DNA from: an uncultured Gammaproteobacteria bacterium
GTDB taxonomy: Bacteria > Pseudomonadota > Gammaproteobacteria > Steroidobacterales > Rariloculaceae
Assembly: GCA_964503125.1 (NCBI GenBank)
Contig: CAZCZE010000064.1
Span: 64,052-128,051 of the forward strand
DNA: 64,000 nucleotides
Direction of reading: 5' to 3'
Part shown: piece by piece, positions 8,031-50,681 of the stretch
Numbering within the stretch: the stretch's first letter is position 1
How the letters are laid out: every line of letters starts with the position of its first letter
Notes under the pieces: generated by a model
The model's database searches: none
The model's input: only the letters and a program-made list of their open reading frames with translations
What the model was told of the DNA's origin: nothing
Position numbers and translations under genes: made by a program

Positions 8031-9377
8031 ATGTTCCTGACGAAAAAGCATCTGTCGCGCCGTACAGTGCTCAGAGGTGCCGGCGTGTCACTGGCGCTGC
8101 CGCTGCTCGACGCGATGATTCCCGCCGCGACGGCACTCGCTCAAACGGCCGCGGCGCCAAAACTGCGCGTCGGCTTCTTCTACATTCCGCATGGCGCGAT
8201 CCAATGGAACACGGCGCACGGTGCGGCGGCGGATCGCTGGAACCCAAGCGGCTCCGGCGCGAGCTTCAAGTTGAGCGAGATCCTCTCCCCGCTCGAGGAG
8301 TTCAAGCACCTCGTGACATCGTTCTCGCACCTCGAAAACAAGGCCAACCAGAACTCCGTCCACGCGATCGTGCCGGCCACCTGGCTCTCGGGCAAGCGCC
8401 CCGACAGCGGCGCGCAGGGCGCGAGCATGTCGACGACGATCGACCAGATGATCGCCGAGCGCATCGGCCAAGAAACGGCGTTGCCGTCCCTCGAGGTCGC
8501 ATCCGAGACGACGGCGCAAGCCGCGGCTTGTCCATCCGGTGCGGGTTGCTACTACTCGACGACGCTGTCCTTTCGCAACGCGAGTTCGCCGCTGCCGATG
8601 GAATTCAATCCGCGCAAGGTGTTTACGCAACTGCTCGGCGAAGGCGACACCGACACCGAGCGCGCGGCGATCACGGCACAGACGCGCAGCCTGCTCGACC
8701 TGATCGCGAACCGCACGGCCGCACTGCAAAGGGAAGTCGGCGCGAGCGACCGCATCGTGCTCGACGAGTACCTGAGCACGGTGCGCGAGATCGAGCGCCG
8801 CGTCCAAATGGCGGAGCAGCGTGATCTGTCGGCGATCACCCTGCCCGAAGCGCCGATCGGCGAGCTCGACTCTTTCGACGATCAGGTCAAGCTCATGTTC
8901 GACCTGATCGCCCTCGCGTATCAGGCGAACCTCACGCGTGTAGCGTCGTACATCATGGTAGCCGAGGGCACGCAACGCACGTACAACCATATCGGCGTGC
9001 CGGACGCGTTCCACCCGCTGTCGCACCATGCGAACAAGACGGACAGCATCGACAAGCTCGTGCGCATCCAGAAGTACCACGTCGAGCGCTTCGCGGCCTT
9101 CGTGAAGAAGCTCGCCGAGACCCCGGACGGCGACGGGTCGCTGCTCGACCACTCGCTGTTCATGTACGGATCGAACATGAGCAACAGCGACCGGCACAAC
9201 AACTATCCGCTGCCGAACATCCTGGTCGGCGGCGCGAACGGCCGGCTCAAGGGCGGCCAGCAGGTCGAGCTTCCGGAGCACACGCCGCTCACGAACCTGC
9301 TGCTCACGGTGCTCAACAAGGCCGGGCTCGAGATGCCGAGTTTCGCCGACAGCACGGGCGAGATCGCGGGCGTCTGA
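8031..9377 (+). CDS. DUF1552 (HXXSHH) domain protein, Tat signal (copy 1)
   Basis: 448 aa. N-terminus MFLTKKHLSRRTVLRGAGVSLALPLL. HPLSHH motif (DAFHPLSHHANK). GGAGG-type RBS. 26 nt after the DUF1592 gene. Confidence 0.9.
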   Translation: MFLTKKHLSRRTVLRGAGVSLALPLLDAMIPAATALAQTAAAPKLRVGFFYIPHGAIQWNTAHGAAADRWNPSGSGASFKLSEILSPLEEFKHLVTSFSHLENKANQNSVHAIVPATWLSGKRPDSGAQGASMSTTIDQMIAERIGQETALPSLEVASETTAQAAACPSGAGCYYSTTLSFRNASSPLPMEFNPRKVFTQLLGEGDTDTERAAITAQTRSLLDLIANRTAALQREVGASDRIVLDEYLSTVREIERRVQMAEQRDLSAITLPEAPIGELDSFDDQVKLMFDLIALAYQANLTRVASYIMVAEGTQRTYNHIGVPDAFHPLSHHANKTDSIDKLVRIQKYHVERFAAFVKKLAETPDGDGSLLDHSLFMYGSNMSNSDRHNNYPLPNILVGGANGRLKGGQQVELPEHTPLTNLLLTVLNKAGLEMPSFADSTGEIAGV

Positions 9378-10285
9378 TGCGCGGCGTGAATCGCAGGACG
9401 GTCCTACACGGCGCGCTCGGCGTTGCCGCCGCCGCGGTCGTTCGCCCCGCGTTCGCCAAAGTCAGCGCGATCACCGACGAGCTGTCGTTGATCGGTGGCT
9501 TGGGCGGCAACGTCGTCGCGCTGAAGACGAGCGACGGCGCCGTGCTCGTCGACAGCGGCAAGGCCGGCGCGAACAGCCCGGTGTTCGGTTTCCTCGAGGC
9601 AGCGACTAGCAGCCGGCGTGTCCACACGCTGTTCAACACGCACTGGCACCTCGACCAAATCGGCGGCAATGAAGCGCTCGGGAACGCGGGCGCCAACATC
9701 GTCGCGCACGAGAAAACGCGGCTGCGTCTCGCCGTCGGCTACTACATGGCCGTAGAGGACCGCTATCGCCCGCCCGCGCCCGTGCAGGCGCAGCCGACCG
9801 AGAGCTTCTACACGACGGGCTCCACGACGATCGCCGGCAAGCGCATCGAGTACGGCTACCTGATCGAGGCGCATACCGACGGCGATGCCTATGTCTATTT
9901 CCGCGACGACAACGTCATCGCCGTTGGCGACGCAATAGCACCCGAGCGCGACGTCGAGCTCGACTGGTGGGGCGGCGGTTGGCTCGGCGGCCGCGTCGAC
10001 TCGCTGAAGCAGTTGCTCGATCTCACGAACGCGCAGACGAAGTTCGTGCCGAGCTACGGCGACGTCGTCGGTCGCGCCGCGGTGCAAGCCGAGCACGACA
10101 TGTGCGAGCTGCTCTTCGACCGATTCTTCGAGCGCATCCGCAAGGGCGAGACTAACGAGGACATGCTCGCAGCCGGCATCATGGAAGGCACGGGGCGGAC
10201 GTGGAATGACCCGGCCAAGTTCGTCCACGACGCGCACAAAGGCTTCTGGGGCCACAACAACACTTTGTCGCACGATATCGTATGA
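9377..10285 (+). CDS. secreted MBL-fold metallo-hydrolase-like protein (motif HWHLDQ)
   Basis: 302 aa with a signal/Tat-like N-terminus. FNTHWHLDQIGGN at 9641..9658 occupies the HxHxDH position; also AHTDGDAYVYF. One-nt start/stop overlap with DUF1552. Confidence 0.85.
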   Translation: MRGVNRRTVLHGALGVAAAAVVRPAFAKVSAITDELSLIGGLGGNVVALKTSDGAVLVDSGKAGANSPVFGFLEAATSSRRVHTLFNTHWHLDQIGGNEALGNAGANIVAHEKTRLRLAVGYYMAVEDRYRPPAPVQAQPTESFYTTGSTTIAGKRIEYGYLIEAHTDGDAYVYFRDDNVIAVGDAIAPERDVELDWWGGGWLGGRVDSLKQLLDLTNAQTKFVPSYGDVVGRAAVQAEHDMCELLFDRFFERIRKGETNEDMLAAGIMEGTGRTWNDPAKFVHDAHKGFWGHNNTLSHDIV

Positions 10286-11811
10286 GACACCTGACACTCG
10301 CTGTTTCGATTCTGCTTGCCTGCGCTGCGGCGCACGCACAGCGGCCGCTCGCGGATCTGATCCAGAACGGCGAGCGAGCCGCGGCGCTCGCAGCTATAGA
10401 CGACGGCGCCGACGTCAACGCGACGCAAGGCGACGGCACGACGCCGCTGCACTGGGCCGTCTACAAGGTCGACCGCGAGCTCGTCGCCGAGCTGCTCGAT
10501 CGCGGCGCGAAAGCCGACGTCACGAACAACTACGGCTCGAGCCCGCTCGCCGAGGCCGTGAAGCTCGGCGACTTCCCGCTGGTCCGGCAGTTGCTCGACG
10601 CCGGGGCCAACGTCGAATCGCCGAACGGCGACGGCCAGACGGCGCTGATGCTCGCCGCGCGCATTGGCGCACTCGACGTCGCGAAGCTGCTCGTCGAGCG
10701 CGGCGCCGACGTCAACGCGAAGGAGGCCTGGCGCGATCAGACGGCGTTGGTGTGGGCCGTCGACGGCAACTTCCCCGAGCTCACCGAGCTCTTGATCGAT
10801 AGCGGCGCGGACGTGAACGTGCGCGCGTCGGCCAACGACTGGGACTCGCAGATCACGTCCGAGCCGCGCGCTCAGTACCGCCCCGTCGGCGGCCTGACGG
10901 TGCTCATCTACGCCGCGCGTTCCGGCTGCACGCGTTGCGTGCGCTCCCTGCTTGCGGCCGGCGCCGATATCGATCAGCCGACGCCGGAAGGCATGACGCC
11001 GCTGATGATCGCGATCGACAACACGAGCTACGATACGGCGCGCCTGCTGCTCGACGAAGGTGCGAACCCGCACGTCTGGGATTGGTATGGCCGCACGGCG
11101 CTGTACGTGGCCGTCGACATGAGCAATCTCCGCGGGCGGCAGCCGCACCCGACGGCGTCGTCCGAAACGTCGGCGACGGACCTCGTCCGGCTGTTGCTCG
11201 ATGCCGGCGTCAATCCGAACGCGCAGCTCAACATGCATCGGCCGAGCCGCGGCGGAAACAGCGGCCGCTTCGCCGACGAGCTATTGACGACGGGCACGAC
11301 GCCGCTGCTGCGCGCCGCGATCGGCGCCGACATCGACGCGGCCCGCCTTCTTCTTGCGCACGGCGCGCTCGTCGATCTACCGAACGTTCACGGCGTGACA
11401 CCGCTGATGGCCGCGGCCGGACACGTCTCGGGACGCGATCGGCGGTTCGATGCCGAGCAGGCCCAAGTGCGGGCGATCGAGCTGCTCGATCTGTTCCTTG
11501 CCGCGGGCGCCGACATCGACGCCAAGATCACCGACAACCACAGCCGCACAGCGAACGTCGGGCGGCAGCCTAACGCCGTGACAGAGCGCGAGGGGCAAAC
11601 GGCGCTCTACGGTGCCGTGAAGTACGGCTGGACCGACGTCGTCGAGTACTTGCTCGCGAAAGGCGCGGATCCGAACGTCACCGACGCGCTCGGCAGAACA
11701 CCAGTCGACGCCGCACTCGGGCGAGTCGCCGGCCGCGACAACGTCGTCTCCGAGGAGATCGCGGCGCGGTTGCGCGCCGCGAGCGCCCGCGGCCCCATCG
11801 TCACGCGCTAG
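10282..11811 (+). CDS. ankyrin-repeat protein with signal peptide (copy 1)
   Basis: 509 aa. Signal MRHLTLAVSILLACAAAHAQ. Repeated G.TPLHWA...LL..GA..N ankyrin units throughout. ATGA overlap with the MBL gene. Confidence 0.9.
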   Translation: MRHLTLAVSILLACAAAHAQRPLADLIQNGERAAALAAIDDGADVNATQGDGTTPLHWAVYKVDRELVAELLDRGAKADVTNNYGSSPLAEAVKLGDFPLVRQLLDAGANVESPNGDGQTALMLAARIGALDVAKLLVERGADVNAKEAWRDQTALVWAVDGNFPELTELLIDSGADVNVRASANDWDSQITSEPRAQYRPVGGLTVLIYAARSGCTRCVRSLLAAGADIDQPTPEGMTPLMIAIDNTSYDTARLLLDEGANPHVWDWYGRTALYVAVDMSNLRGRQPHPTASSETSATDLVRLLLDAGVNPNAQLNMHRPSRGGNSGRFADELLTTGTTPLLRAAIGADIDAARLLLAHGALVDLPNVHGVTPLMAAAGHVSGRDRRFDAEQAQVRAIELLDLFLAAGADIDAKITDNHSRTANVGRQPNAVTEREGQTALYGAVKYGWTDVVEYLLAKGADPNVTDALGRTPVDAALGRVAGRDNVVSEEIAARLRAASARGPIVTR

Positions 11812-26038: not shown

Positions 26039-26800
26039 TCACTCGTCGTCGAACTCGAGCAGCGCGTTCTCGAATTCCTCGTAGGTCGCGTTGTCCTCGC
26101 AGACGAGCTCGTCGATCGTCCAGTCGGTCTTGCGGTAGTAGCGCGAGAACTCCCACGGCTTGGCGAGCGCGATCGGATCGTCGACGCGCATGTCGATCTG
26201 GAGCTGGCCTTCGTCGTTCAAGTGGATGCGCTCGGTCAGCTTCATCTCTTCGCTGTGCGGCACGGCGATGCGGTCGAGCCAAGTCTTGTCGTTGAACTGC
26301 GCCGTCTCGACGACGAGCGTCTTGCCTTCCCAATGGCCGATCGAGTCGCCCATCCAGGACGGCGCGAGATCGGTACGGTGCTCGCGGCCGTCAGTGTAGA
26401 TCTGCCGTACGAGGTGGTCGTACTCGAACACCATGAGCACGCGACCCGGCAGCTGAATGATCTCCATCGGGAACGGATGGATGTAGATGCGCGGTGTGCC
26501 GGGCGGATAACACTTGTAGACGAGATCGTCGGTCTCGGCGACGGCTACGCCGCGCGGGCCGCGCTGCGGTTTCGCGGCGTCGAACCTTGCCTGGCCCCAG
26601 GCCGTCATTTCGGGCAGGTCCTTGCTGAACGTATTGATCGCCCACTCGGCCGTACCCGGCAGATTGACGTTCGTCCAGACGCCGCTCAAATCGGCGTTGT
26701 GCTCGCCCGGCGTCGGCGCCTGGGCGTTCGCGCCCGACGTCGACACCAGCACCAGCAGCAAACCTACGGCGAGAGAAGCCGCCCAGCGTTCTCGATGCAT
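26039..26800 (-). CDS. secreted 'WEGDTLVVET'-family protein (paralog A)
   Basis: 253 aa. GGAGG RBS and a signal peptide. Blocks DDLVYKCYPPG, MGDSIGHWEGKTLVVETAQF, KLTERI and VDDPIALAKPW are shared with the ORFs at 39190, 44430 (C-terminal half) and 47146. Confidence 0.8.
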   Translation of the reverse strand: MHRERWAASLAVGLLLVLVSTSGANAQAPTPGEHNADLSGVWTNVNLPGTAEWAINTFSKDLPEMTAWGQARFDAAKPQRGPRGVAVAETDDLVYKCYPPGTPRIYIHPFPMEIIQLPGRVLMVFEYDHLVRQIYTDGREHRTDLAPSWMGDSIGHWEGKTLVVETAQFNDKTWLDRIAVPHSEEMKLTERIHLNDEGQLQIDMRVDDPIALAKPWEFSRYYRKTDWTIDELVCEDNATYEEFENALLEFDDE

Positions 26801-26810
26801 CTTCCCTCCG

Positions 26811-27194
26811 CTATTCGTCGTCGATCAGCACTGTGCCTTGGCCGTCAACGATCTTGAGAATGTCCATCATCGGCGCGCCGTTGCGCGCGGGATGGCCCGT
26901 CATCATGATGCTGTCGCCAGGCGTCAGGATCGACTTGTGCCACTTCACTGCACGCGCGTCGCGCGCGAGGCGATTCGGGCTCGTAAGCTCGCCCCCCCAC
27001 TTCGTCTCTTTGCCGTCGTCGCCTTTCACGACGATGTAGACGAGGACGTGCGGATTCACGAACTGAAAATCCGTGACCGTCCCCGCAACGGTGACTTTGT
27101 TCACGGGCTCGAAGACACCTGCGCCGTGATGCGCCGTGGCCGGCGGCGCCACCAGCAATCCAAGTGCCACGACCACACCGACTTTTGAGCTCAT
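26811..27194 (-). CDS. DUF6152-like small secreted protein
   Basis: ATG at 27194 follows GGAGGA. Signal then ATAHHGAGVFEP...VTVAGTVTDFQFVNPHVLV, the HH...NPH pattern I recall for DUF6152. 10 nt upstream of paralog A. Confidence 0.8.
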   Translation of the reverse strand: MSSKVGVVVALGLLVAPPATAHHGAGVFEPVNKVTVAGTVTDFQFVNPHVLVYIVVKGDDGKETKWGGELTSPNRLARDARAVKWHKSILTPGDSIMMTGHPARNGAPMMDILKIVDGQGTVLIDDE

Positions 27195-27220: not shown

Positions 27221-28240
27221 TCATTGTACCGCGCCGCGCGCGCTCAACCGAATCCGATACAACGTCGTGCGCCCCGTGATGTACAGCGTGCGGCCGTCGG
27301 CGCCCCAGCCCACGTTCGTCAGCGCCTCGTCGGGCCGTATCGTGCCCAAATGCGTGCCGTCGGGCGAGAGGATCCAGACGCCGCCGGGCCCCGTCGCATA
27401 GACGTTGCCCGCGAGATCCACCTTCATGCCATCGGCGCCGCCCAAACCTTCGACGCCCGTGATGTCGAAGAACACGCGCTTGTTCGACAGGCCGCTGGCA
27501 CTGAGATCGTACGCCATCCAGCCCGTCACGGCGCCGCCAGAATTGGCGACATAGAGAATCGATTCGTCGGGCGATAGCACCAGCCCGTTCGGGCGCTCCT
27601 GCTCGCGCGTCAGAAGCTGGAGCTCGCCGCTGGGCCGCAAGCGATAGACGCCGTTGAACGTGAGCTCGCGCAGCGGCGAATTGTCCATGCCTTCGAGGCC
27701 GAACGACGGATCGGTGAAGTACACGGTGCCGTCACGCGCGACGATGAGGTCGTTCGGGCTGTTGAGCCGTTTGCCTTCGAAGCGCTCGGCGAGCGTCGTG
27801 AGCGTACCGTCCTTCTCGAGCCGCACTACCGAGCGGCTGCCGTAGACGCAGACGAGCAGCCGGCCCTCTGCATCGAGCGCGACGCCGTTGGGGCCGACAC
27901 CGCGCAGACCGGTACCGTCGCCATGGAAGAAGGGCCGCACGTAGTCGGTCGGGCCTTCGGCCATCGTCCACTGGTAGATGGCGTTGCCGCGCAAATCGGA
28001 ATAGAGCAGCCGCGACTCTTCGCGGAGCCAGACGGGCCCTTCGAGGAACACGAAGCCCTCGGCGAGCTTCTCGATGGTCGCGCCCGCGGGCACGAGCGCA
28101 TCGAAGCGCGGATCGAGGCGGACGATGACGCCGGCGCCGGCCGGCGTCTCCGTTTGGGCCGCCGTCGGAATTGCCACGAGCAGAGCGAGGCCCACCGCAC
28201 AAGTGGCCACGAGATTCGCCGGACGCAAGCAGGGCCGCAT
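27221..28240 (-). CDS. SMP-30/gluconolactonase/LRE family protein (secreted)
   Basis: 339 aa with a signal peptide. Blocks LEGPVW, NSPNDLIVARDGTVYFTDP, PNGLVLSPDESILYVANS and DGMKVDLAGNVY. Confidence 0.9.
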   Translation of the reverse strand: MRPCLRPANLVATCAVGLALLVAIPTAAQTETPAGAGVIVRLDPRFDALVPAGATIEKLAEGFVFLEGPVWLREESRLLYSDLRGNAIYQWTMAEGPTDYVRPFFHGDGTGLRGVGPNGVALDAEGRLLVCVYGSRSVVRLEKDGTLTTLAERFEGKRLNSPNDLIVARDGTVYFTDPSFGLEGMDNSPLRELTFNGVYRLRPSGELQLLTREQERPNGLVLSPDESILYVANSGGAVTGWMAYDLSASGLSNKRVFFDITGVEGLGGADGMKVDLAGNVYATGPGGVWILSPDGTHLGTIRPDEALTNVGWGADGRTLYITGRTTLYRIRLSARGAVQ

Positions 28241-39189: not shown

Positions 39190-39930
39190 GTGCTGCGAAC
39201 GACCCTCGTCTGCGCCGGCATCCTCGCCTTGGGCACGGCGTGCTCGCAGCGGCAGCCCGCCTCCCATCCCGACCTCTCGGGCCTCTACCGGCCCGCCGGG
39301 CTCGAGGTGCAACCTTGCGGGCGCAACGAATGGATGCGCCGCTCGTTCGACACAGACACGTTCTGCAACGGCGACGACAGCGCGTTTCCGTTCACGGCCG
39401 CGGGGCTCGAGCGCTGGAAGAGCTACGACGTCATCGACGACCCCGTGCTCGGCTGCGTCGAGGACTTTCCGCGCAGCGCGATGCGCGGCCGGCCGATGAA
39501 GATCGCGATCGGCGAGGACGTCACCGAAATCGCCTACTGGTTCAACAACGAATGGTTCGTGCGCACGGTCCACATGAGCGGCGCGCCGCCGCCCGCCGAC
39601 ATGCCCAACAGCGTCACGGGCTACTCGACGGGCCACTGGGTCGGCGACTCGCTCGTCGTCGAGACGACGCACACGCGCGGCGGGCCGATGTTCAACGATC
39701 ACAAGCCGAACAGCTCGGCTGCGAAATTCACCGAGCGCTTCTGGCGTGCGCCCGACGGCGCCAACGTGCTCATGGACCTCGTCATCGACGACCCGGAGAT
39801 CTACTCGAAGCCGTTTCTGTTGAACCGGCAGGAGTGGCTCGCGGCGCCGGCCGACTACCGGCTCAGCGAGGACAAGTGCGAGCCGAGCTCGATTTGGGAA
39901 CGGCGCATGCGCGCCAAAGCAGGCCAGTAG
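39190..39930 (+). CDS. lipoprotein of the 'WEGDTLVVET' family (paralog B)
   Basis: 246 aa with a GTG start and lipobox LALGTAC. Blocks DDPVLGC, TGYSTGHWVGDSLVVETTH, KFTERF and IDDPEIYSKPF. Confidence 0.8.
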   Translation: MLRTTLVCAGILALGTACSQRQPASHPDLSGLYRPAGLEVQPCGRNEWMRRSFDTDTFCNGDDSAFPFTAAGLERWKSYDVIDDPVLGCVEDFPRSAMRGRPMKIAIGEDVTEIAYWFNNEWFVRTVHMSGAPPPADMPNSVTGYSTGHWVGDSLVVETTHTRGGPMFNDHKPNSSAAKFTERFWRAPDGANVLMDLVIDDPEIYSKPFLLNRQEWLAAPADYRLSEDKCEPSSIWERRMRAKAGQ

Positions 39931-39952: not shown

Positions 39953-40570
39953 ATGACATCCGTAAGCAAGGCACTGGCGGCCTCGTTCGTCTTGAGCGGA
40001 GCCCTGTTGGCCGGCGCCGCGGCGGCGCACCACTCCGACTCGCTGTATTTCGTCGACGACCGCTCGGCCGACGGCGGTGCGATCCGCATCGAAGGCACGA
40101 TCTCGCGCGTGCGTTGGATCAACCCACACTCCGAGTTCTTCGTCGACGTCGCCAACCCCGACGGCGGCGCGCCCATCGTCTGGGCGATCGAAACGGACTC
40201 CGTGAACCAGTTGCGCGGGCTCGGCTGGGACGAGAGCACGCTCGAAGTCGGCGACAAGGTCGTCGTCGTCGTCTCGAAGTCGAAGTTCGACGACACGGCA
40301 GGCCGATTGCGCGACATGCTCGTCTATGGCGCCACCCCCGACGAGCCGGCGGCCGTCTACCTCGAGTTCAAGGGTAACGGCAAACCCGAGTGGCAGGCAC
40401 CGTTCGAGGTCTATCGGCAGTACATGCCCTGCCCCGGCACCGCGCCGTTCGACCCCGAGCGCCAGCCGGGTAAGGAGACGCTACTCTGCGCCCGGCTCAG
40501 CTCCGCGGAATTGGCCGCGGCTCAGCAACGATTCGCCGCGCGCGTGCTGTTGCTGCGCGACACTCACTAG
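39953..40570 (+). CDS. DUF6152-like secreted protein (long form)
   Basis: 205 aa with a GGAGGG RBS. Signal then AAAAHHSDSLYF...IRIEGTISRVRWINPHSEFFV. Confidence 0.75.
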   Translation: MTSVSKALAASFVLSGALLAGAAAAHHSDSLYFVDDRSADGGAIRIEGTISRVRWINPHSEFFVDVANPDGGAPIVWAIETDSVNQLRGLGWDESTLEVGDKVVVVVSKSKFDDTAGRLRDMLVYGATPDEPAAVYLEFKGNGKPEWQAPFEVYRQYMPCPGTAPFDPERQPGKETLLCARLSSAELAAAQQRFAARVLLLRDTH

Positions 40571-40851
40571 CGGCCGGTCACCGGACGCCGGCAGAACCAA
40601 TCTCATGTACGGCGCCGTGCAGATCGTGACCTTCGCGGCGTTCCTGCTCCTCGCGCTCGTGCCCTGACGCGCCCGCGCGCCGAACCGGTCGGTCTCGAAA
40701 TCGAACCATTCGGTTCGTGTGGCCGTGGAGCAACAGACCGCCGCAAAACGACGCGGATCAAGGCGCTCGCCCGTTGTTTCCCGTGATTCAAAGTTGGGCC
40801 ATACTCCGGGGCGGGGCGGAAGTAGTCTGGCTGTCGTTTAAGGGGGAATCA

Positions 40852-43647
40852 ATGCGTACTCAATGTCTACGCCTGGCTGCGCTTTCCGCGGCCGTCATCG
40901 GCTCACTACCGTTTTGCGCATCGGCGCAGCTCGAAGAGATCATCGTCACGGCGACTCGCCGCGAGACCGATTTGCAGAGCACGCCGCTGTCGATTCAGGC
41001 CTTCACGGCCGAGCAGCTCGAGCTCGGCGGCATCACGAACGGCCGCGATCTCGGCATCATGGTGCCTAACGTAACACTCAATCCCGGGACGGGCGGCGCC
41101 CAAGCCGACTTCCACGTTCGCGGCTTGCCCGGCGTGGGCTTGTACGTGGACGGCGTCTGGCAGGATGGCTTCGGCTTTCAGCAGATGAACTTCTCGGAGA
41201 TGGAGCGCGTCGAGGTGTTGCGCGGTCCGCAGGGCACGCTATTCGGGCGTAACACCAATGGCGGTGCGGTCAACATGACGACCAAGAAGCCGGGCGACGA
41301 GTTCGGCGCTCGCGTCAGACTCGACGTCGGCGACTTCGATCGGCGCGATGCGTCGATCGCCGTCGACTTGCCGCTCACCGACACGCTGAAGACGAAGTTC
41401 ATGGGCGCGACGGCCCGCAACGACGGGTTCCTGGAAAGCTTGACTACGCCGTGGGACTTCGGCTCGCAAGACGACACGATCCTGCGCGCCGACCTGCTCT
41501 GGGAGCCCACCGATACGTTCTCGTTGCGCTTCACGCACAACGACGAGCAGAAACGCGGCACAGATCCGAAAATCCACCGGATGACGCGCTACGACAACTC
41601 GAAGCTCTACGCCTACGAGATCATGCTCGGGGCGTTCCAAGCAGACGCCAATCGCCGCTGCGTGCAGCTGGGCAATAACGTGTCGTATCCGGTCACGGGC
41701 GGCGGCACGTCCGCCGCCCCGCAGGGTACGCCGGCCGCCTATGTCGGCGCCTACGGTTGCAACAACGGTGTCTGGAGTGCGCCGCCCGCCAACGGTATCG
41801 GTACGCGCTACACGGGCGCGGCACCGACGGCCTTCAACCCGGCCACTCACATGACCGACTTTCCTAACAACTATGCAGCAGAGATGACGAGCCGCTACGG
41901 CAACTATGCGACTTCGCTCAATGCCACGGGTCAACCGGTCGAGCTGCTGGGGTCCACCTACACTCCCAATCCGTTGGTCCCGGATAGGGGGTTCGGCCCG
42001 CCCCAAGTCGGCCAATGGCAAACGAGGTCCGACTCGATGGAGGATGGCATCACGGCAGACCTCAAATACAGCACGATCACCGCCGACTGGGACATCAACG
42101 ACAACTTGAGCCTCCAGGCCATTCTGTCGAACTGGGAGCAGGACCAACGCCAGGTCATCGACTTCGACGGCACCGAGTTCCTCGTGACCACCGACGACAT
42201 CCCCCAGTTTCGAGAGAACCAAACGGTCGAGCTGCATTTGACGGGCTCCGCGCTGAACGATCGCATCAGCTGGCTGGCCGGCTATTATCGGCTCGACGAA
42301 GAGATCATCACGCGCTTTTACCGTTGGGGCATGTGGGAGTTCACAACACCGAACACCGGACCCGCAGACCCACCCACGAATCTTGCGTATGCCGAATACG
42401 TGCGCCAGACCGCTTTCCTGCTGAATCTGAACGGGTTCACGGGCGGTAACATGCTCCAGACGGCTCCCGCTGGGCCGCAGGGGCTCTACGGGTGGAACTT
42501 CGCTTTTATCAGCGACGATCTGCTGACCAGCTCATACGACGAGGACACGGCTTTCTTCGGCGAAGCGACCTTCAGCGTCACCGACAAGCTCGATCTAACG
42601 GTCGGCATTCGACAGAGCGATAAGGAGGGCGGTGATTTTACGTACGTCCCGGCGGATGCGTTTCGAACACCGGATCCGGCCATCCGGCCGCAGGGCAACC
42701 CGTTCGCCTACAGCAGCCGGACCGAAAGCGTCGACTCGCCCAAGCCGAAGATCGACACCTACAAGCTCTCCGCGGCGTATCAGGCGACCGACAACGCGAT
42801 GCTCTACGTGACCTATGCGGAAGGGTTCACGTCGGCTAGCGACCCCATCGTCACCATCGGTGCCGCAGCGGTGCTGTCGTCCATTCCGGCCAGCTCGAAC
42901 CCCGTGCGCGTCAGTCCGACGCAAGCGCGGATCAGCTTGCCCGTAGAAACGATCGAGAACACCGAGATCGGGCTGCGTTCCGACTGGCTCGACAATCGGC
43001 TGCGCTTCAACGCCACCTACTTCGACTCCCAGTGGGACGGCATGCGTATCCAGCTACTGCCACTCGACGCGCAGGGCAACACCCAGCCGTTCCCTTACGC
43101 CACGGGCGACGGCAAAGGCAGCGCCAGCGGTTGGGAGTTCGAGGTGATCTGGGCGGCGACCGACCGCCTGACCTTGAACGCAGGGCTCGGCCTGATCGAC
43201 ACCAACTACCAGCAGGCCGGAGTGTTCACGGGTCTTCCGGGGCAAGCCAGCGTCACAGGTAACTACCCCGGCGCCCCGTTCGCCTACGCCGCGGAAGAGA
43301 GCGGTACGTTGGGTGCGCAGTACGAGATCCCGACGTCGAACGGCGGCCGCATCCTGCTCGTGGGCAACTACGGCTATACGGGCGACTATGCACGCGACGC
43401 GGCGTATCAACGCACGCAGATCGATGCCAACGGCAATCCGATTCTCGAGCCTGCCTACGGCATCCTGAACGCGCGCTTCGTCTACGAGCCGCCTGCGCGC
43501 AACTATTCCGTCGAGATCTGGGGCAAGAACCTCCTCGACGAGCTGTACGTCAACGGCGGCTTCGACACACGCGACACGTGGGGCTACGACTTCTCGATCG
43601 TGGGCCGGTCGCGCGAGGTGGGCGTCAGCCTGAGCTTCTCGTTCTAG
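40852..43647 (+). CDS. TonB-dependent receptor
   Basis: ATG at 40852 after AAGGGGG. Signal then QLEEIIVTATRRETDLQSTPLSIQAF (TonB box/plug), RVEVLRGPQGTLFGRNTNGG, and a C-terminal ...REVGVSLSFSF ending in aromatic F. Confidence 0.95.
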   Translation: MRTQCLRLAALSAAVIGSLPFCASAQLEEIIVTATRRETDLQSTPLSIQAFTAEQLELGGITNGRDLGIMVPNVTLNPGTGGAQADFHVRGLPGVGLYVDGVWQDGFGFQQMNFSEMERVEVLRGPQGTLFGRNTNGGAVNMTTKKPGDEFGARVRLDVGDFDRRDASIAVDLPLTDTLKTKFMGATARNDGFLESLTTPWDFGSQDDTILRADLLWEPTDTFSLRFTHNDEQKRGTDPKIHRMTRYDNSKLYAYEIMLGAFQADANRRCVQLGNNVSYPVTGGGTSAAPQGTPAAYVGAYGCNNGVWSAPPANGIGTRYTGAAPTAFNPATHMTDFPNNYAAEMTSRYGNYATSLNATGQPVELLGSTYTPNPLVPDRGFGPPQVGQWQTRSDSMEDGITADLKYSTITADWDINDNLSLQAILSNWEQDQRQVIDFDGTEFLVTTDDIPQFRENQTVELHLTGSALNDRISWLAGYYRLDEEIITRFYRWGMWEFTTPNTGPADPPTNLAYAEYVRQTAFLLNLNGFTGGNMLQTAPAGPQGLYGWNFAFISDDLLTSSYDEDTAFFGEATFSVTDKLDLTVGIRQSDKEGGDFTYVPADAFRTPDPAIRPQGNPFAYSSRTESVDSPKPKIDTYKLSAAYQATDNAMLYVTYAEGFTSASDPIVTIGAAAVLSSIPASSNPVRVSPTQARISLPVETIENTEIGLRSDWLDNRLRFNATYFDSQWDGMRIQLLPLDAQGNTQPFPYATGDGKGSASGWEFEVIWAATDRLTLNAGLGLIDTNYQQAGVFTGLPGQASVTGNYPGAPFAYAAEESGTLGAQYEIPTSNGGRILLVGNYGYTGDYARDAAYQRTQIDANGNPILEPAYGILNARFVYEPPARNYSVEIWGKNLLDELYVNGGFDTRDTWGYDFSIVGRSREVGVSLSFSF

Positions 43648-44345
43648 CGGCGCCGCACGTCCGACCCGCCGCTCGTGTCGATGTCGACCGAGCTCGGCTG
43701 GCCGCTGTAGGCGATATCGCTGCCGCCGGACGCGTGCCCGGAGATCTTGTCGCGCACGGCGATCACGAGATCGGAGCCGCCGCTGCTGTTGACGTTGGCC
43801 TCGCCCGCCGTGAAACGGCCGGCGTTCACATCGCTGCCGCCCGTCGATGCCAACCGCGCCGCACGCGCCGTGCCGGTCAGGTTCACGTCCGAGCCGCCCG
43901 AGGCGTTGAGCTCCAGCGTATCGACGGCCACTTCGATCACCACGTCGCTGCCGCCGGAAACGTCGATCCGCAGCGCGTCGCCGGTGAGCGCACCCTCCGC
44001 CCTGACATCCGAGCCGCCCGAGGCCGTGAGCGCCACGAGCTTTGGCAGCGTCACGTGCACGGAGCCGGCATCCCCCCAGTGGAAGCCGAACGACCGTTCG
44101 CGGCGGATCTCGAGCTTTCCGGCGCGGACTTCGGTAATGATCTCGCTCGCATCGTCATCCGACTGCACCTCGACGACGAAACGGTCGCCCTGACGGAGCA
44201 GGAGGTCGATGCCACCGCCGACTGCGACGGCTTCGAACCCCGAGAGGTCGCGCGTCTCGGTGTCTTGCGCGGCCGCGGGCAGGGACACCCACAGCGATGA
44301 AACAAGGACGAGTCCGGCGGCTGTCGCCCGATCGTGAGCCTGCAT
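43644..44345 (-). CDS. head GIN domain (DUF2807) protein, secreted
   Basis: ATG at 44345 after AAGGAG, with a signal peptide. FEAVAVGGGIDLLLRQGD..., then periodic (S/T)GGSD(V/L/I) turns, ending GGSDIAYSGQPS. Its stop overlaps the TBDR stop (CTAG). Confidence 0.85.
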   Translation of the reverse strand: MQAHDRATAAGLVLVSSLWVSLPAAAQDTETRDLSGFEAVAVGGGIDLLLRQGDRFVVEVQSDDDASEIITEVRAGKLEIRRERSFGFHWGDAGSVHVTLPKLVALTASGGSDVRAEGALTGDALRIDVSGGSDVVIEVAVDTLELNASGGSDVNLTGTARAARLASTGGSDVNAGRFTAGEANVNSSGGSDLVIAVRDKISGHASGGSDIAYSGQPSSVDIDTSGGSDVRRR

Positions 44346-44429
44346 GGTTCTTCTCCTTGGAAAACCGGCCCTCAATACTGCCACAATGAGCGCGTTGGCG
44401 TAGCGGTCGCCCCGACCGGAGGCTCTGTT

Positions 44430-45419
44430 TTGAGCGCTGCGACGTTGTCCCGCCTCGGCGTCCTCGCGGTTGCACTCGCGCTGCCGGCGTTTGCGCACCA
44501 CGGGGTGGCGCCGCACTACGACGATAGCCGACAAGTCACGATCGAGGGCTCGGTCGAAGAGTTCCAGTTCATCAATCCGCATTCATTCGTTTATCTGCGT
44601 GTGACCGGCACCGACGGCACGGAAGCCATTTGGCACTGCGAGCTCGCGTCGCGCAGCGTGCTCGCGCGCAACGGCTTGACGGCCGAGCGGTTCGCGCCCG
44701 GCACGCGCGTCACGATCACGGGCAGCCAGGCGCGCCACAATCCCACGGGCTGTGCGTTGCGCGAAGCGCAGTTCGCGGACGGCAGCGTGCTGCGCTCGTC
44801 GACGCTGTTCGGCGCCACGCCCGCGACGACCACCGAGGCTGCGGCTGGCAGCGATTCGATCGAAGGCGTCTGGGCCATGAAGACGTTCGCCGTGTCGTAC
44901 TACACGGACGTGCTCACCGACGAAGGCGAGCGCCGGCGCGCGGCGTTCGACCCGATCGAAGACGACCCGGCGATCCATTGCGACCCCGCGAGCCCCGTGC
45001 GCTTCTGGGTCAACGTCAACGAGCCGTTCGAGATCCGCCGCGAAGGCGACTCGGTCGTCGTCGACCACCAGTTCATGGACAGCCGACGCGTCATTCATCT
45101 GGACCGAACGGCTCCGCCTGCGGGCACGCAGCCGAGCACGATGGGCTATTCGACGGGGCGCTTCGACGGCGAGACGCTCGTCGTGACGACGACGAGCTTC
45201 GTCGCGGCCGCGCTCGAGCCGCGGCGCGCCGTCATGCACACGGCGGGCTTGAAGCTCACCGAGCGGCTCGCCGTGAACCCCGCGACGCGCGAGCTCGAGA
45301 TCGCGTGGACCATCGACGACCCCGCGATCTTCAAGGAGCCGCACACGCAGACAGAAATCTTCGTGCGGACCGAGCGGTCGCGGGAGCCCTACGACTGCAA
45401 GCCCGGCTATCAGCAATAG
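44430..45419 (+). CDS. fusion protein: DUF6152-like N-terminal module plus 'WEGDTLVVET'-family C-terminal module
   Basis: TTG at 44430 lies 7 nt after GGAGG (44418..44422). The ATG at 44334 would overlap the divergent gene start. Signal then AFAHHGVAPHYDD...VTIEGSVEEFQFINPHSFV. After about aa 130: DDPAIHCDP, MGYSTGRFDGETLVVTTTSF, KLTERL and IDDPAIFKEPH. Confidence 0.8.
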   Translation: MSAATLSRLGVLAVALALPAFAHHGVAPHYDDSRQVTIEGSVEEFQFINPHSFVYLRVTGTDGTEAIWHCELASRSVLARNGLTAERFAPGTRVTITGSQARHNPTGCALREAQFADGSVLRSSTLFGATPATTTEAAAGSDSIEGVWAMKTFAVSYYTDVLTDEGERRRAAFDPIEDDPAIHCDPASPVRFWVNVNEPFEIRREGDSVVVDHQFMDSRRVIHLDRTAPPAGTQPSTMGYSTGRFDGETLVVTTTSFVAAALEPRRAVMHTAGLKLTERLAVNPATRELEIAWTIDDPAIFKEPHTQTEIFVRTERSREPYDCKPGYQQ

Positions 45420-45436: not shown

Positions 45437-47020
45437 CTAGCGTCGCGCCGCGATCTGCTCGCGCAGGAACTTGGCCGTCTCCGCCGGCTGCGCGCCGTCG
45501 TCGAACAACCCGATCATCTCGGCGAGCGGTGACAGCTGCCGCGGCGACATCTTCTCGACGAGCTCGAGAGCCGTGAGACCGTCCTTGTTGCGCAGCTCGA
45601 CCGAGGCGCCGCCCGCGACGAGCTCGCGGATCGGGCCGAGGCGACCGTCGTGCGCCGCAACGTGCAGCGCGGTATCGCCCTTGGGATTCAGCGCATCGGG
45701 ATTGGCGCCGGCCTCGAGCAACACGCGGACCGCGTCCGCGGGCTCGCGATTGCCGGGCTCGCGAAAAACGCCGATCTTCCCTTCGCGGATGTCGCCCGGC
45801 CCGCCGTCCATGAGCTGGCCCTTGCCGCCGTTGAGCGCCGCCATGAGCGGCGTTTGGCCCGTGTTGTCGCCGAACGGCATCGGCGGCGCGCCTTCGACGG
45901 GCTTCGGCGTCCATTCGACGTCGGCGCCGTGCGCGATCATGAGCTGCAACGACTCGACGTCGGCGGCCACGGCCGCGCGGTAGAACGGCGTTCCCGACCC
46001 CTTCGCGTCGCAGCACATCGACGCCGAATGCATTTGCCCGTCGAACGGCTTGTTCGGGTCGGCGCCCGCCTCGAGCAACCGGGCCACGAGTTCGAGCGCC
46101 GTGAGGTGGTTCGCGTGATCGGCGCGCAGGCGCGAGCCGTCGCGCGCGCGCCAGTCGGTCGGGGCGTCGCGCATCACGACGGCATAGTAAAGCGAGCCGT
46201 CGTTCGCGTCCGCGCCGAGCTCGAGCAACGTCGCGGCCATGTCGAAGCGATCGTTGACGACCGCGAGCATCATGGCGCTGGCGCCGTCGCCGTTCGTCGC
46301 TTTCGCGTCCGCGCCACCCTCGACGAGACGGCGCACCAGGGCCTCGTTGCCGTTACGCGCGGCCCACATCAACGCGGTGAACCCGCCCGTGGGGAAGTCC
46401 GCGCGCATACTGCGTTTCGTGAGCTCGGACACGCGCGCCTTGCGGTTCGGATCCGCGCCGGCCGCAAGCAGCGCCTCGACGACGGGCAGGTGCCCTTCGG
46501 CCGTGGCCCACATGAGCGCGGTCTGCTCCTGTAGCGTCTCGACGGCATTGGGGTCGGCCCCGTGCGCGAGCAACTGCTCGACGATGTCGACGCGCCCGGA
46601 ACGCGCCGCGGCCATGAGCGGCGTCTCGCCGTCGCGGACGGCGCGCTCGACGTCCGCGCCGGCGTCGAGCAACGCGCGCGCCGTGGCCGCGTCGCCGTTG
46701 CGTGTGGCCTGTAGCAACGGCGTGACGCCGAATTGACTGGGCGCGTTCGGGTCGGCGCCGGCCGCGAGCAACGTGGCAACGAGCTCGGCCGACGAGTGGT
46801 AGGCAGCCCAAAGCAGCGCCGGCGTTCCTTCGCTGTCCGGCGCGTTGACGTCGGCCCCGGCCTTGAGCTCGGCACGCACGGCCTCGGGGTCGGCCGCGCG
46901 GGCCGCCGCCGCGACGCTCTCCGCGGCCGCGCGCGAGCCCCATTGGCTCGCGAGCAACGCCAGCGAGACCACTACCGCCGCTCGAACACCGTAACGTCCT
47001 TGCCTCAGCGCGCTCGTCAT
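45437..47020 (-). CDS. ankyrin-repeat protein with signal peptide (third copy)
   Basis: ATG at 47020 after GAGGA. Signal AAVVVSLALLASQWGSRAAA. Ankyrin units GTPALLWAAYH..., GVTPLLQATRNG..., ETPLMAAARSG... and more. Confidence 0.9.
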   Translation of the reverse strand: MTSALRQGRYGVRAAVVVSLALLASQWGSRAAAESVAAAARAADPEAVRAELKAGADVNAPDSEGTPALLWAAYHSSAELVATLLAAGADPNAPSQFGVTPLLQATRNGDAATARALLDAGADVERAVRDGETPLMAAARSGRVDIVEQLLAHGADPNAVETLQEQTALMWATAEGHLPVVEALLAAGADPNRKARVSELTKRSMRADFPTGGFTALMWAARNGNEALVRRLVEGGADAKATNGDGASAMMLAVVNDRFDMAATLLELGADANDGSLYYAVVMRDAPTDWRARDGSRLRADHANHLTALELVARLLEAGADPNKPFDGQMHSASMCCDAKGSGTPFYRAAVAADVESLQLMIAHGADVEWTPKPVEGAPPMPFGDNTGQTPLMAALNGGKGQLMDGGPGDIREGKIGVFREPGNREPADAVRVLLEAGANPDALNPKGDTALHVAAHDGRLGPIRELVAGGASVELRNKDGLTALELVEKMSPRQLSPLAEMIGLFDDGAQPAETAKFLREQIAARR

Positions 47021-47145
47021 GACCGTCCTCTGTTCGCCTAGTCGATGATCGTAGCAGCACTGCACACGCCGGTGTGACCGCCGCTTTGATCTTCGGTATC
47101 CTAACCAGCCGCACGTTGTTCAGGATAGCGCTTAGGGAGTCAGCC

Positions 47146-48126
47146 ATGAGATCTCACACTTCGACCGGCATTGCCCTCGCCGTCTTGGCCGTCGTCTCGA
47201 TGCCCGCCGGGCAGACCCAGCCCGTCGCGAGCACGCCGCCGATGCCGCGCACGTCGTGGGGCGACCCCGCCATCGAGGGCACGTACACGAACAAGGACGA
47301 GTTCGGCACGCCGTTCGAGCGCCCCAACGAGCTCGCCGGCCGGCAGCGCAGCGAGTTCGGGCCCGAGGCGATGGCCGAGCTCATGGTGGAGCGCACGCGG
47401 CGCGGCGCCGCCATCGCGCAGAGCATCGGCGGCAGCGCCACGAACGACACGGGCGCGGGCCCGCCGCACTGGTACGAGTACCTCGAGGCCGTCAACAGCC
47501 GGCCGTGGCTCGTCAACGAGCCGGCCGACGGTAAGGTCCCGGCCGTGACCGACGAGGCGCGCCAGCGCGCCCAAGCGCAGGTCCGCAACTTCGCGAAACG
47601 CGACGCGCCCGACACCTACACCGACATGAGCCTCTACGATCGCTGCATCTCGATCGGGCTGCCGGGCTCGATGATGCCGATGATCTACGGCAATGCGTAC
47701 GAGATCACGCAGTCACCGGGCTACGTGGCAATTCGCTACGAGATGGTCCACGAGACCCGCATCATCCCGCTCGGCGACTCGCCGCGCCTCGCGTCGAACC
47801 TCGACTTCTATATGGGCGACGCGCGCGGCCGCTGGGAAGGCGACACGCTCGTCGTCGAGACGACGAACATCCGCCCCCAAGCGGCGTACCGCAACGCCAG
47901 CGAGAACTTGAAGATCACCGAGCGCTTCACGCCGCTCGACGCGAACACGCTCTCCTGGGAGGTGCGCTTCGAGGATCCCGCCACCTGGACCGCGCCGTGG
48001 TCCTTCGAGATGCCGCTCGAGCGCAGCGCCGAAGCCGCGCCGTTCGAGTACGCCTGCCACGAGGGCAACCTCGGCTTGCGCAACATCTTGAGCGCCGCGC
48101 GCGCGGCCGAGCGCGACGCGAAATAG
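47146..48126 (+). CDS. secreted 'WEGDTLVVET'-family protein (paralog D)
   Basis: ATG at 47146 after GGGAG, with a signal peptide. Blocks YDRCISIGLPG, MGDARGRWEGDTLVVETTN, KITERF, FEDPATWTAPW and a C-terminal YACHEGN. Confidence 0.8.
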   Translation: MRSHTSTGIALAVLAVVSMPAGQTQPVASTPPMPRTSWGDPAIEGTYTNKDEFGTPFERPNELAGRQRSEFGPEAMAELMVERTRRGAAIAQSIGGSATNDTGAGPPHWYEYLEAVNSRPWLVNEPADGKVPAVTDEARQRAQAQVRNFAKRDAPDTYTDMSLYDRCISIGLPGSMMPMIYGNAYEITQSPGYVAIRYEMVHETRIIPLGDSPRLASNLDFYMGDARGRWEGDTLVVETTNIRPQAAYRNASENLKITERFTPLDANTLSWEVRFEDPATWTAPWSFEMPLERSAEAAPFEYACHEGNLGLRNILSAARAAERDAK

Positions 48127-50278: not shown

Positions 50279-50620
50279 TCACTCGTAACGCAGCACTTCC
50301 GACGGCTGCACCTCGAGAGCGCGCCTGGTCGGCACGATGCCGACCAGGACCGCGGCGAGCAACAGCAAAGACACGGCGGCGAAGGTGAGCGGATCCGTCG
50401 CCTCGATGCCGAAGAGCGTGTTGGAGATCAGCCGCGTCAGGATCAGCGAGCCGATGATGCCGATCACGAGCGCCGCTGCAACGACCACGACGGCCTGGCG
50501 CATGATGAGCGCGACGATCGTTCGTGCGTTGGCGCCGAGGGCCAAGCGGATCCCGATCTCGTGCGTGCGCTGCGCCACCGCATAGCTGATGACGCCGTAG
50601 AACAGGCACGACGACTTCAT
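50279..50620 (-). pseudogene. 3' remnant of an FtsX-like (MacB-type) ABC permease gene
   Basis: The 113-aa ORF matches only the last two TM helices of FtsX-family permeases (GVISYAVAQRTHEIGIRLALGANARTIVALIMRQ...). In-frame TAA TAA lies immediately upstream, and the remaining several hundred aa are absent. Confidence 0.7.
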
Positions 50621-50681
50621 GGGCTTGCCGTCACACCACTGCCCCGGTTATTAGCTACGATAGCGCGCACAGGTCACACGA

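Follow-up and report, generated by a model that had tools for sequence, protein, structure and literature searches.

The gene at positions 44430-45419 of the DNA analysed here, a window of 64,000 nucleotides from the genome of an uncultured gammaproteobacterium of the family Rariloculaceae, encodes an exported protein of 329 residues in which two protein families are joined into a single chain. The first family is DUF6152, and we refer to this part of the protein as D. The second, which forms the C-terminal half of the fusion, is unnamed and is referred to as F. Genes for D and F also occur side by side as separate pairs, both in the window and throughout the genome, and the two families almost certainly represent one functional unit. 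We hypothesize that the fusion and the two split pairs of the window are three copies of one periplasmic two-part unit, a metalloprotein that would combine an N-terminal-histidine metal site in D with a ligand-holding barrel in F. We consider the chances for and against this layered reading as a whole to be evenly balanced.

The fusion gene, located on the forward strand, is composed of sequences for a signal peptide, a DUF6152 domain, a linker, and an F barrel domain, as read from the open reading frame (ORF) and its translation. It starts with a TTG codon at 44430, preceded by GGAGG 7 nt to the 5′ side. The signal peptide (44430-44498) ends in ...PAFA, and the predicted cleavage site lies directly before a His-His pair, in the AXA-HH arrangement that is found in 94 of 94 paralogues. 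The DUF6152 domain (44499-44790) adopts an oligonucleotide/oligosaccharide-binding (OB) fold in its predicted structure, begins in its mature form with His1-His2 (HHGVAPHYD), and contains the invariant FINPH motif. An initial annotation, made from the sequence alone, had described the N-terminal half of the protein as DUF6152-like. The profile hidden Markov model (HMM) of Pfam family PF19649 (DUF6152) matches it with 87.6 bits (E 6e-25), relative to a gathering cut-off of 27 bits, over nucleotides about 44469-44747, so that the half is indeed related to the small DUF6152 proteins encoded nearby. The F domain (44847-45416) has about 190 residues and carries the motifs DDPAIHC, GYSTGRFDGETLVVTT, KLTER, and IDDP, and a C-terminal cysteine. 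It is homologous to three further proteins of the window, as BLASTP searches with the C-terminal half of the fusion identify the products of 26039-26800 (E 3e-14), 39190-39930 (E 4e-12), and 47146-48126 (E 1e-7). At least 120 full-length orthologues of the fusion, with about 329 residues and 73-88% identity, are present in independent metagenomes. The fusion also occurs in 15 genomic loci of gammaproteobacterial metagenome-assembled genomes (MAGs) from soil and fen, with 60-79% identity, one of which is a Candidatus Rariloculus genome.

The source assembly has 4.37 Mb and is 99% complete. Copies of D and F were counted with iterated HMMs in all six-frame ORFs of this genome; the first F profile was built from the four copies in the window and six homologues. 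The iterated search yielded 94 D and 129 F ORFs; the Pfam DUF6152 model has 95 matches and the ten-sequence F profile 128. The two domains are fused in a single reading frame in 25 cases, 24 of them in addition to the fusion of the window. A further 54 D copies have an F neighbor on the same strand with less than 600 nt between the domains, located upstream of D in 33 cases and downstream in 21. In total, 79 of the 94 D copies are fused to F or adjacent to it on the same strand, and six have no F within 5 kb. D precedes F in all 25 fusions, which fits the need for a free N-terminal histidine, and the linkers are 5-57 residues long. Two apparent fusions of the opposite order were rejected, since the iterated F profile had absorbed columns of D.

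D and F genes constitute the largest paralogue cluster among about 4,370 genes of the source genome, which were called crudely, on the basis of GC content at third codon positions (GC3), for cluster and neighborhood statistics. The set comprises 189 genes, roughly 4% of the crudely called genes, spread over 30 contigs in 86 loci, where up to nine genes form an array. The median pairwise identity among paralogues is 31% for D and 25% for F and, judged by these sequences, the copies are old and diverged. This family scale of about 190 genes, together with a D subtype paired with DUF6644 and a link to cytochrome c and pyrroloquinoline quinone (PQQ) dehydrogenases, both described below, goes beyond the initial annotation.

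The sequences of D and F have diverged in concert. In 78 units, the distances among D domains correlate with those among F domains (Mantel r=0.566), a value that none of 2000 permutations reaches (mean 0.002, standard deviation 0.038), and in 27 of the 78 units the nearest D paralogue is the partner of the nearest F paralogue. The fused or split state changes at least 5 times on the tree of units, compared with a mean of 21.7 for shuffled labels, and the fused forms make up clades of 12, 8, and 3 members and two singletons. Therefore, fusion or fission occurred several times, and the fused forms then radiated.

The distribution of the two families is similarly linked. All 25 sampled genomes of the bacterial family of the window, which belong to three genera, contain from 52 to at least 92 copies of D and at least 65 copies of F each. 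Sixteen other families of the same order have none or one D and no F. In one family member, whose genome has only 2.4 Mb and is 97% complete, at least 91 matches to DUF6152 and 65 or more to F were found; nearly one gene in ten may belong to the module there. Among 401 genomes sampled evenly from the phylum, D was found in 37, usually as one copy, and F in nine. All nine F-bearing genomes also have D, and F is present in none of the 364 genomes without D. Where other families encode the same D subtype, with the mature N-terminus HHSF or HHAF..., F adjoins D at eight of nine loci. D-F fusions exist outside the source genome too (representatives P0251 and P0392), so that D and F are found fused as well as encoded by separate adjacent genes in several lineages, as is characteristic of a Rosetta-stone pair. 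The proposal of the initial annotation that the two modules work together is thus borne out by their coupling in the source genome, by their adjacency in other genomes, where the split genes could have turned out to be rarely neighbors, by the joint occurrence of F with D, and by the co-varying distances of the partners. We infer from these sequence relationships that D and F form a physical complex.

All 94 D paralogues have a hydrophobic signal region and an AXA-type cleavage site that is followed at once by His-His. Alanine occupies position -1 in 89 and position -3 in 73 of them. His1, His2, and the histidine of the NPH loop are each conserved in 100% of the 94 paralogues, as is no other position, and the same signature was found at 29 loci from other families of the phylum. 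Signal-type N-termini are present in all 94 D proteins and in 94 of 104 unfused F proteins; 13 of the unfused F proteins carry a lipobox-like motif. The earlier statement that an invariant His-His pair follows the cleavage site therefore holds for the whole set of D paralogues, and the one that all copies are exported is supported by these counts. This conservation strongly supports a role of the histidines as a metal or cofactor site, and we consider a metal site probable on the same sequence grounds. N-terminal histidines freed by signal cleavage have been experimentally validated as metal chelators in several unrelated exported folds (PMC12537917; YcnI, PMC8424229). Of the hallmarks of a histidine brace, a histidine as residue 1 of the mature exported protein is predicted for D by its sequence; another, an immunoglobulin- or cupredoxin-like β-sandwich, is absent, as the D model is of OB type.

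The AlphaFold2 (AF2) model of the mature D protein of the first split pair has a predicted local distance difference test score (pLDDT) of 93.7 and a predicted template modelling score (pTM) of 0.85. The chain forms an OB-type barrel. Its N-terminal arm (12 residues) and first strand (11 residues) are of equal length, and the N-terminus could therefore come close to the histidine of the NPH loop, a candidate for the second histidine that completes a T-shaped N3 site in a histidine brace. Foldseek matches of D are generic OB folds, namely the N-terminal anticodon-binding domain of LysRS, SSB, and PriB, with template modelling (TM) scores of 0.5-0.65, and no metal-binding OB fold is among the top 50. 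Our literature searches, within the library used, found no paper on DUF6152, none that links the histidine brace to an OB fold, and nothing on Rariloculus.

F lacks recognizable relatives among named families. The F proteins of the window have no Pfam match at E<=0.1, F has no match in NCBIfam, and sequence comparison with the PDB gave none at E<=10. In the AF2 model of the fusion (pLDDT 81.6, pTM 0.72), F is composed of one strand, four short helices, and ten strands, mostly with pLDDT >90. The best Foldseek matches of F are CRABP, CRBP, and FABP (E 3e-4 to 4e-3, TM 0.5-0.6, probability 1.0). At the level of the fold, F shares with the calycins and lipid-binding proteins a ten-strand barrel and a helical lid after the first strand, and no profile match to these families was obtained. 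Near-invariant residues in 130 F domains include two cysteines (98% and 85%), an arginine (92%), the glutamate of TER (97%), and a DP pair (98%), in addition to the blocks G.S.G.W and GDTLVV.T. The blocks DDP..C, G.S.G.W.GD(T/S)LVVET, K.TER, and DDP, quoted in the initial annotation, are present in all four F proteins of the window, together with the C-terminal cysteine. A search of 1.84 billion representatives with the F profile retrieved 17,687 clusters at 50% identity at E<=1e-3 and 10,805 at E<=1e-10. The matches include tandem double-F proteins and D-F fusions.

Based on these observations, we propose the following mechanism. The removal of the signal peptide would bare His1-His2 on the OB fold of D, and these two residues, together with the histidine of the NPH loop, would form an N-terminal-histidine metal site. 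Copper, bound in the style of a histidine brace, is the leading candidate, and nickel or another transition metal is possible; copper is our best guess because of the analogy with CopC, YcnI, and lytic polysaccharide monooxygenases (LPMOs) and because of a CopD-like partner. F would be an exported FABP-like barrel that is probably locked by a disulfide and accommodates an organic ligand, small and probably hydrophobic. The two parts would act as a heterodimer, or as a single chain when fused, with the leading position of D keeping His1 free. The metal site would then work on the molecule bound in F or exchange electrons with it, and the roughly 90-130 old and diverged copies would provide different ligand specificities. 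Metal binding by D, the D-F complex, the ligand of F, and the redox chemistry are predictions of this model. Of these, redox chemistry on the ligand bound to F is conceivable but somewhat doubtful.

Cytochrome c is fused to F, as a class I domain, in one F representative (P0394). The architecture is a large one: of 8,000 scored candidates, 7,988 reach E<=1e-3, and PF13442 is present in almost all of the best 120. In six cytochrome c-F operons from other genomes, the genes are arranged in the order [F]-[cytochrome c-F]-[F]-[DUF6152], and a PQQ-dependent dehydrogenase adjoins four of the six. DUF6152 is present in all six, and the idea that cytochrome c replaces DUF6152 was rejected for this reason. 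The window has no PQQ dehydrogenase and c-type cytochrome beside its units, and the F genes of the source genome contain a single CxxCH motif, which lies upstream of the likely start. Two of the operons contain additional genes. Locus L058 encodes, at 10364-11683, a 439-residue exported protein two genes downstream of DUF6152 in an operon with a PQQ dehydrogenase and cytochrome c-F. It contains CxxCH and HHM…HxH…H.H motifs that by eye resemble the copper sites of peptidylglycine and dopamine monooxygenases, and has no precomputed Pfam match. In locus L063, two small TIR-domain genes (8712-9565), encoded on the other strand, separate DUF6152 from the PQQ dehydrogenase, and a toxin-antitoxin pair lies just beyond them; these resemble mobile defence genes that have entered the operon.

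DUF6644 proteins, which are membrane proteins with four helices, are the second recurrent partner of D. A second D subtype, with the mature N-terminus HHGW..., occurs as a single copy in many families, and a DUF6644 gene follows it on the same strand at 20 of 20 loci. None of these 20 loci has F nearby, and no conserved neighbor besides DUF6644 was found; the other adjacent genes include those for RdgC, GyrB, a thiamine pyrophosphate (TPP) enzyme, and Hsp70. Of the 17 DUF6644 ORFs in the source genome, most of which form tandem pairs, eight have a D/F unit within 3 kb (P=0.004), and DUF6644 is the only clearly enriched neighbor family of the units there. Its proteins score 27.7-43 bits with their own Pfam model, the cut-off of which is 27 bits, and have sub-threshold matches to DUF2214 (21.3 bits, E 3e-4), CopD (15.6 bits, E 0.02; cut-off 32.1), and DUF4149 (E 0.03). 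At two places in the source genome (C41:53030-55573 and C21:66328-68965), F, DUF6152, and two tandem DUF6644 genes follow each other on one strand. The many units with D and F alone were probably derived from an ancestral module of this four-gene type.

The DUF6644 neighborhood lends itself to an alternative explanation, according to which the system serves the acquisition or trafficking of a metal, copper, and has no enzymatic role. In the periplasm, D would act as a metallochaperone and deliver the ion to a CopD-like DUF6644 importer, comparable to the transfer from CopC to CopD and from YcnI to YcnJ, and F would be an accessory protein that binds metal or a metallophore. The strict pairing of DUF6644 with the single-copy HHGW subtype across the phylum, the enrichment of DUF6644 near the units, its weak similarity to DUF2214 and CopD, and the precedent for N-terminal histidines (PMC8424229, PMC12537917) all agree with such a role. 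However, 94 D and 129 F copies face 17 copies of DUF6644, and homeostasis systems are not amplified about 100-fold. Moreover, the D subtype coupled to F mostly occurs without DUF6644, the operons with cytochrome c and PQQ dehydrogenase point to electron transfer, and the similarity to CopD remains well below the cut-off. We regard metal trafficking as the sole function of the system as unlikely.

It is also possible that D and F serve as an electron carrier or adaptor. F would dock on a PQQ-dependent or other dehydrogenase, and the copper centre of D or the fused cytochrome c would pass the electrons on, like amicyanin or cytochrome cL. The source genome encodes very large sets of periplasmic oxidoreductases, with 37 PQQ alcohol dehydrogenases (PF01011) and 19 glucose/sorbosone dehydrogenases (PF07995), of which the latter are marginally enriched near the units (7/19, P=0.04). 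This, the large family of cytochrome c-F fusions, and the PQQ dehydrogenases beside four of the six operons favor an electron-transfer role. The PQQ alcohol dehydrogenases of the source genome are nevertheless not enriched near the units, and the presence of D in the cytochrome c-F operons shows that cytochrome c is no simple substitute for D. Furthermore, sites of three histidines with an N-terminal amine are typical of copper in catalysis or transport and not of copper in fast electron transfer, and a ligand-type barrel would be an odd docking module. Taken together, a pure carrier or adaptor appears quite unlikely.

The FABP-like barrel of F and the very large, old, and diverged set of paralogues would also suit proteins for non-catalytic periplasmic binding of hydrophobic nutrients, expanded like the Bug or SusD families. 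D would then have a structural or lid function, and its histidines would be used for folding or ligand contact. Some units adjoin TonB-dependent receptors, as does the second pair of the window, but TonB receptors are not enriched near the units in the source genome: six of 34 lie within 3 kb of a unit, whereas 5.8 are expected, and a TonB-receptor uptake locus as a general rule was rejected on this basis. MacB-like permeases are not enriched near the units of the source genome either. Three histidines that are invariant in every lineage, one of them necessarily at the free N-terminus, have no easy explanation if no metal or cofactor is bound, and the existence of cytochrome c-F fusions does not fit nutrient binding. 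We give this explanation little credit. There is virtually no chance that the fusion is an artefact of misassembly or a frameshift join, or reflects a chance resemblance, a notion for which we found no supporting point and which is refuted by equally long orthologues, at least 120 in number, from independent samples, the 15 MAG loci, the 25 fusions within one genome, which form clades of 12, 8, and 3, and HMM E-values of <=1e-25.

The proposed two-part metalloprotein, with its N-terminal-histidine site and ligand barrel, has to be set against several observations that weigh against it. Neither PQQ alcohol dehydrogenases (9/37, P=0.25) nor cytochrome c genes with CxxCH motifs (15/84, p=0.15) are enriched near the units of the source genome. 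F is more numerous than D (129 and 94 copies), and 34 F copies have no D within 1.5 kb; F may therefore also act alone or share a D. To our knowledge, no histidine-brace protein has an OB fold, and D has no conserved methionine ligands like those of CusF. The likeness of F to FABP is moderate, with TM scores of 0.5-0.6, and the invariant arginine, glutamate, and aspartate of F could be structural. Finally, co-duplication of neighboring genes alone could yield the correlation of the trees, and because co-duplicated neighbors would also co-vary, the linkage of D and F stops short of proof of contact.

The proposed metalloprotein can be extended to a more specific and speculative version, which has a small but real chance of being correct. 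DUF6152 would be a new class of histidine-brace copper centre on an OB fold and, with F, would constitute a very large and so far unrecognised family of copper enzymes of the periplasm, oxygenases or oxidases whose substrates would be small hydrophobic compounds inside the barrel. PQQ dehydrogenases would provide the electrons by way of c-type cytochromes, the CopD-like DUF6644 proteins would supply copper, and in the bacterial family of the window the system would have radiated into about 100 units, each specific to a substrate.

Profile searches show that the window contains exactly three DUF6152 and four F copies, and all the genes listed in the initial annotation exist at the coordinates given here. 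The first split pair is located on the reverse strand. Its DUF6152 gene (26811-27194; PF19649, 78.2 bits) has an alternative ATG at 27224, and its product forms an OB fold in the AF2 model. The F gene (26039-26800), defined by its translation, lies 10 nt downstream of it, and none of 1670 homologues of the F protein has a Pfam domain. Directly upstream of the pair is an SMP-30/gluconolactonase-like gene on the same strand (27221-28240; PF08450, E 2e-43), with its stop codon at 27221-27223. The second pair, on the forward strand, has the opposite order. Its F gene (39190-39930), likewise read by translation, encodes a lipoprotein-like N-terminus and precedes a long DUF6152 gene (39953-40570; PF19649, 66.8 bits), whose product of 205 residues has a C-terminal extension of about 85 residues. 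This tail contains two cysteines (…YMPCPGTAPFDPERQPGKETLLCARL…), is not found in the other copies, and has no family match. The second pair is flanked on one side by a gene for a metallo-β-lactamase fold and on the other, downstream, by a TonB-dependent receptor (40717-43647, forward strand) with Pfam matches to plug and barrel.

Genes for a DUF2807 protein and an ankyrin protein flank the fusion gene. The DUF2807 gene is divergent, and its longest ORF (43644-44582, reverse strand) extends over roughly the first 150 nt of the fusion gene. As the DUF2807 domain begins at residue 116, the true start is probably further in, which would leave a short shared divergent promoter region. The ankyrin-repeat protein is exported (45437-47065, reverse strand; Pfam Ank families) and is encoded between the fusion and the fourth F gene (47146-48126, forward strand; F profile, 286.7 bits). 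The fourth gene had been called a solo copy, and no DUF6152 is immediately adjacent to it; the term holds in a relative sense, since the fusion is 1.7 kb upstream. Exported ankyrin genes are marginally enriched near the units of the source genome (8/22, P=0.035). In addition to the 22 ankyrin-repeat proteins with signal peptides, the source genome encodes 15 DUF1592-type cytochrome proteins. Its second-largest paralogue cluster comprises 82 MacB/FtsX-like permeases of about 850 residues with a large periplasmic domain, an example of which is found in the window at 50279-50647. The set resembles the 'duplicated orphan permeases' of Acidobacteria and is unusual for a gammaproteobacterium.

F is unnamed in Pfam and NCBIfam despite comprising at least 17,687 clusters at 50% identity, and together with D it is amplified in every sampled member of an uncultured family of soil gammaproteobacteria. 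The natural fusion provides a single-chain form of the proposed complex. If the metal site is confirmed, histidine-type metal sites would gain a new scaffold, an OB fold with a strictly conserved, free His-His N-terminus. If the unit is redox-active, it could partly explain the periplasmic oxidation of diverse organic compounds by such soil bacteria. Should it be an oxygenase or oxidase, the unit would parallel, in soluble and modular form, the coupling of LPMOs to PQQ or cytochrome donors, or the proposed coupling of particulate methane monooxygenase to methanol dehydrogenase.

D resembles CopC and YcnI, which work with CopD and YcnJ (PMC8424229, PMC12154828), in being a small exported protein with a mature His1, which binds metal in those systems, and in being encoded beside a small membrane protein with several helices. 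Unlike CopC and YcnI, which are cupredoxin- or immunoglobulin-like sandwiches, DUF6152 has an OB fold with His-His. Those systems are not known to have a barrel partner or to be expanded 100-fold, and DUF6644 is similar to CopD below the threshold.

Metalloproteins with N-terminal histidines have been identified by 'signal strapping', and include the DUF4198 nickel protein, DUF6702, and the anglerases (PMC12537917). Like D, they are exported bacterial proteins of DUF families in which signal cleavage exposes a histidine, which is a transition-metal chelator there, irrespective of the fold. DUF6152 is not among them, has another fold, and has an obligatory second protein partner. Its conservation is stricter, with His-His in 100% of the sequences compared with His1 in 65-79% in the signal-strapping families.

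The parallel with LPMOs that receive electrons from PQQ dehydrogenases and cytochromes (PMC5960967, PMC8981238) lies in the candidate copper centre with an N-terminal histidine and in its operon neighbors, a PQQ dehydrogenase and a c-type cytochrome domain, an arrangement in keeping with the scheme of LPMO activation. However, D and F have no sequence or fold kinship to LPMOs, and the proposed substrate is a small ligand held in a barrel instead of a polysaccharide surface. F has, according to its predicted structure, the strand A, helical lid, and nine or ten antiparallel strands of FABP, CRBP, and CRABP from the calycin superfamily. It differs from them in having no detectable sequence similarity, in being exported, bacterial, and larger, with about 190-250 residues, and in its two near-invariant cysteines and motifs of its own. 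CusF is a periplasmic OB-fold chaperone of Cu(I) and Ag(I) with the ligands His, Met, Met, and Trp. D is similarly a small periplasmic OB-fold protein, for which metal binding is proposed, but it has no conserved methionine, its site is at the N-terminus, and CusF is outside its top 50 structural matches. The DUF6152-DUF6644 side of the module may be a variant of CopC/CopD.

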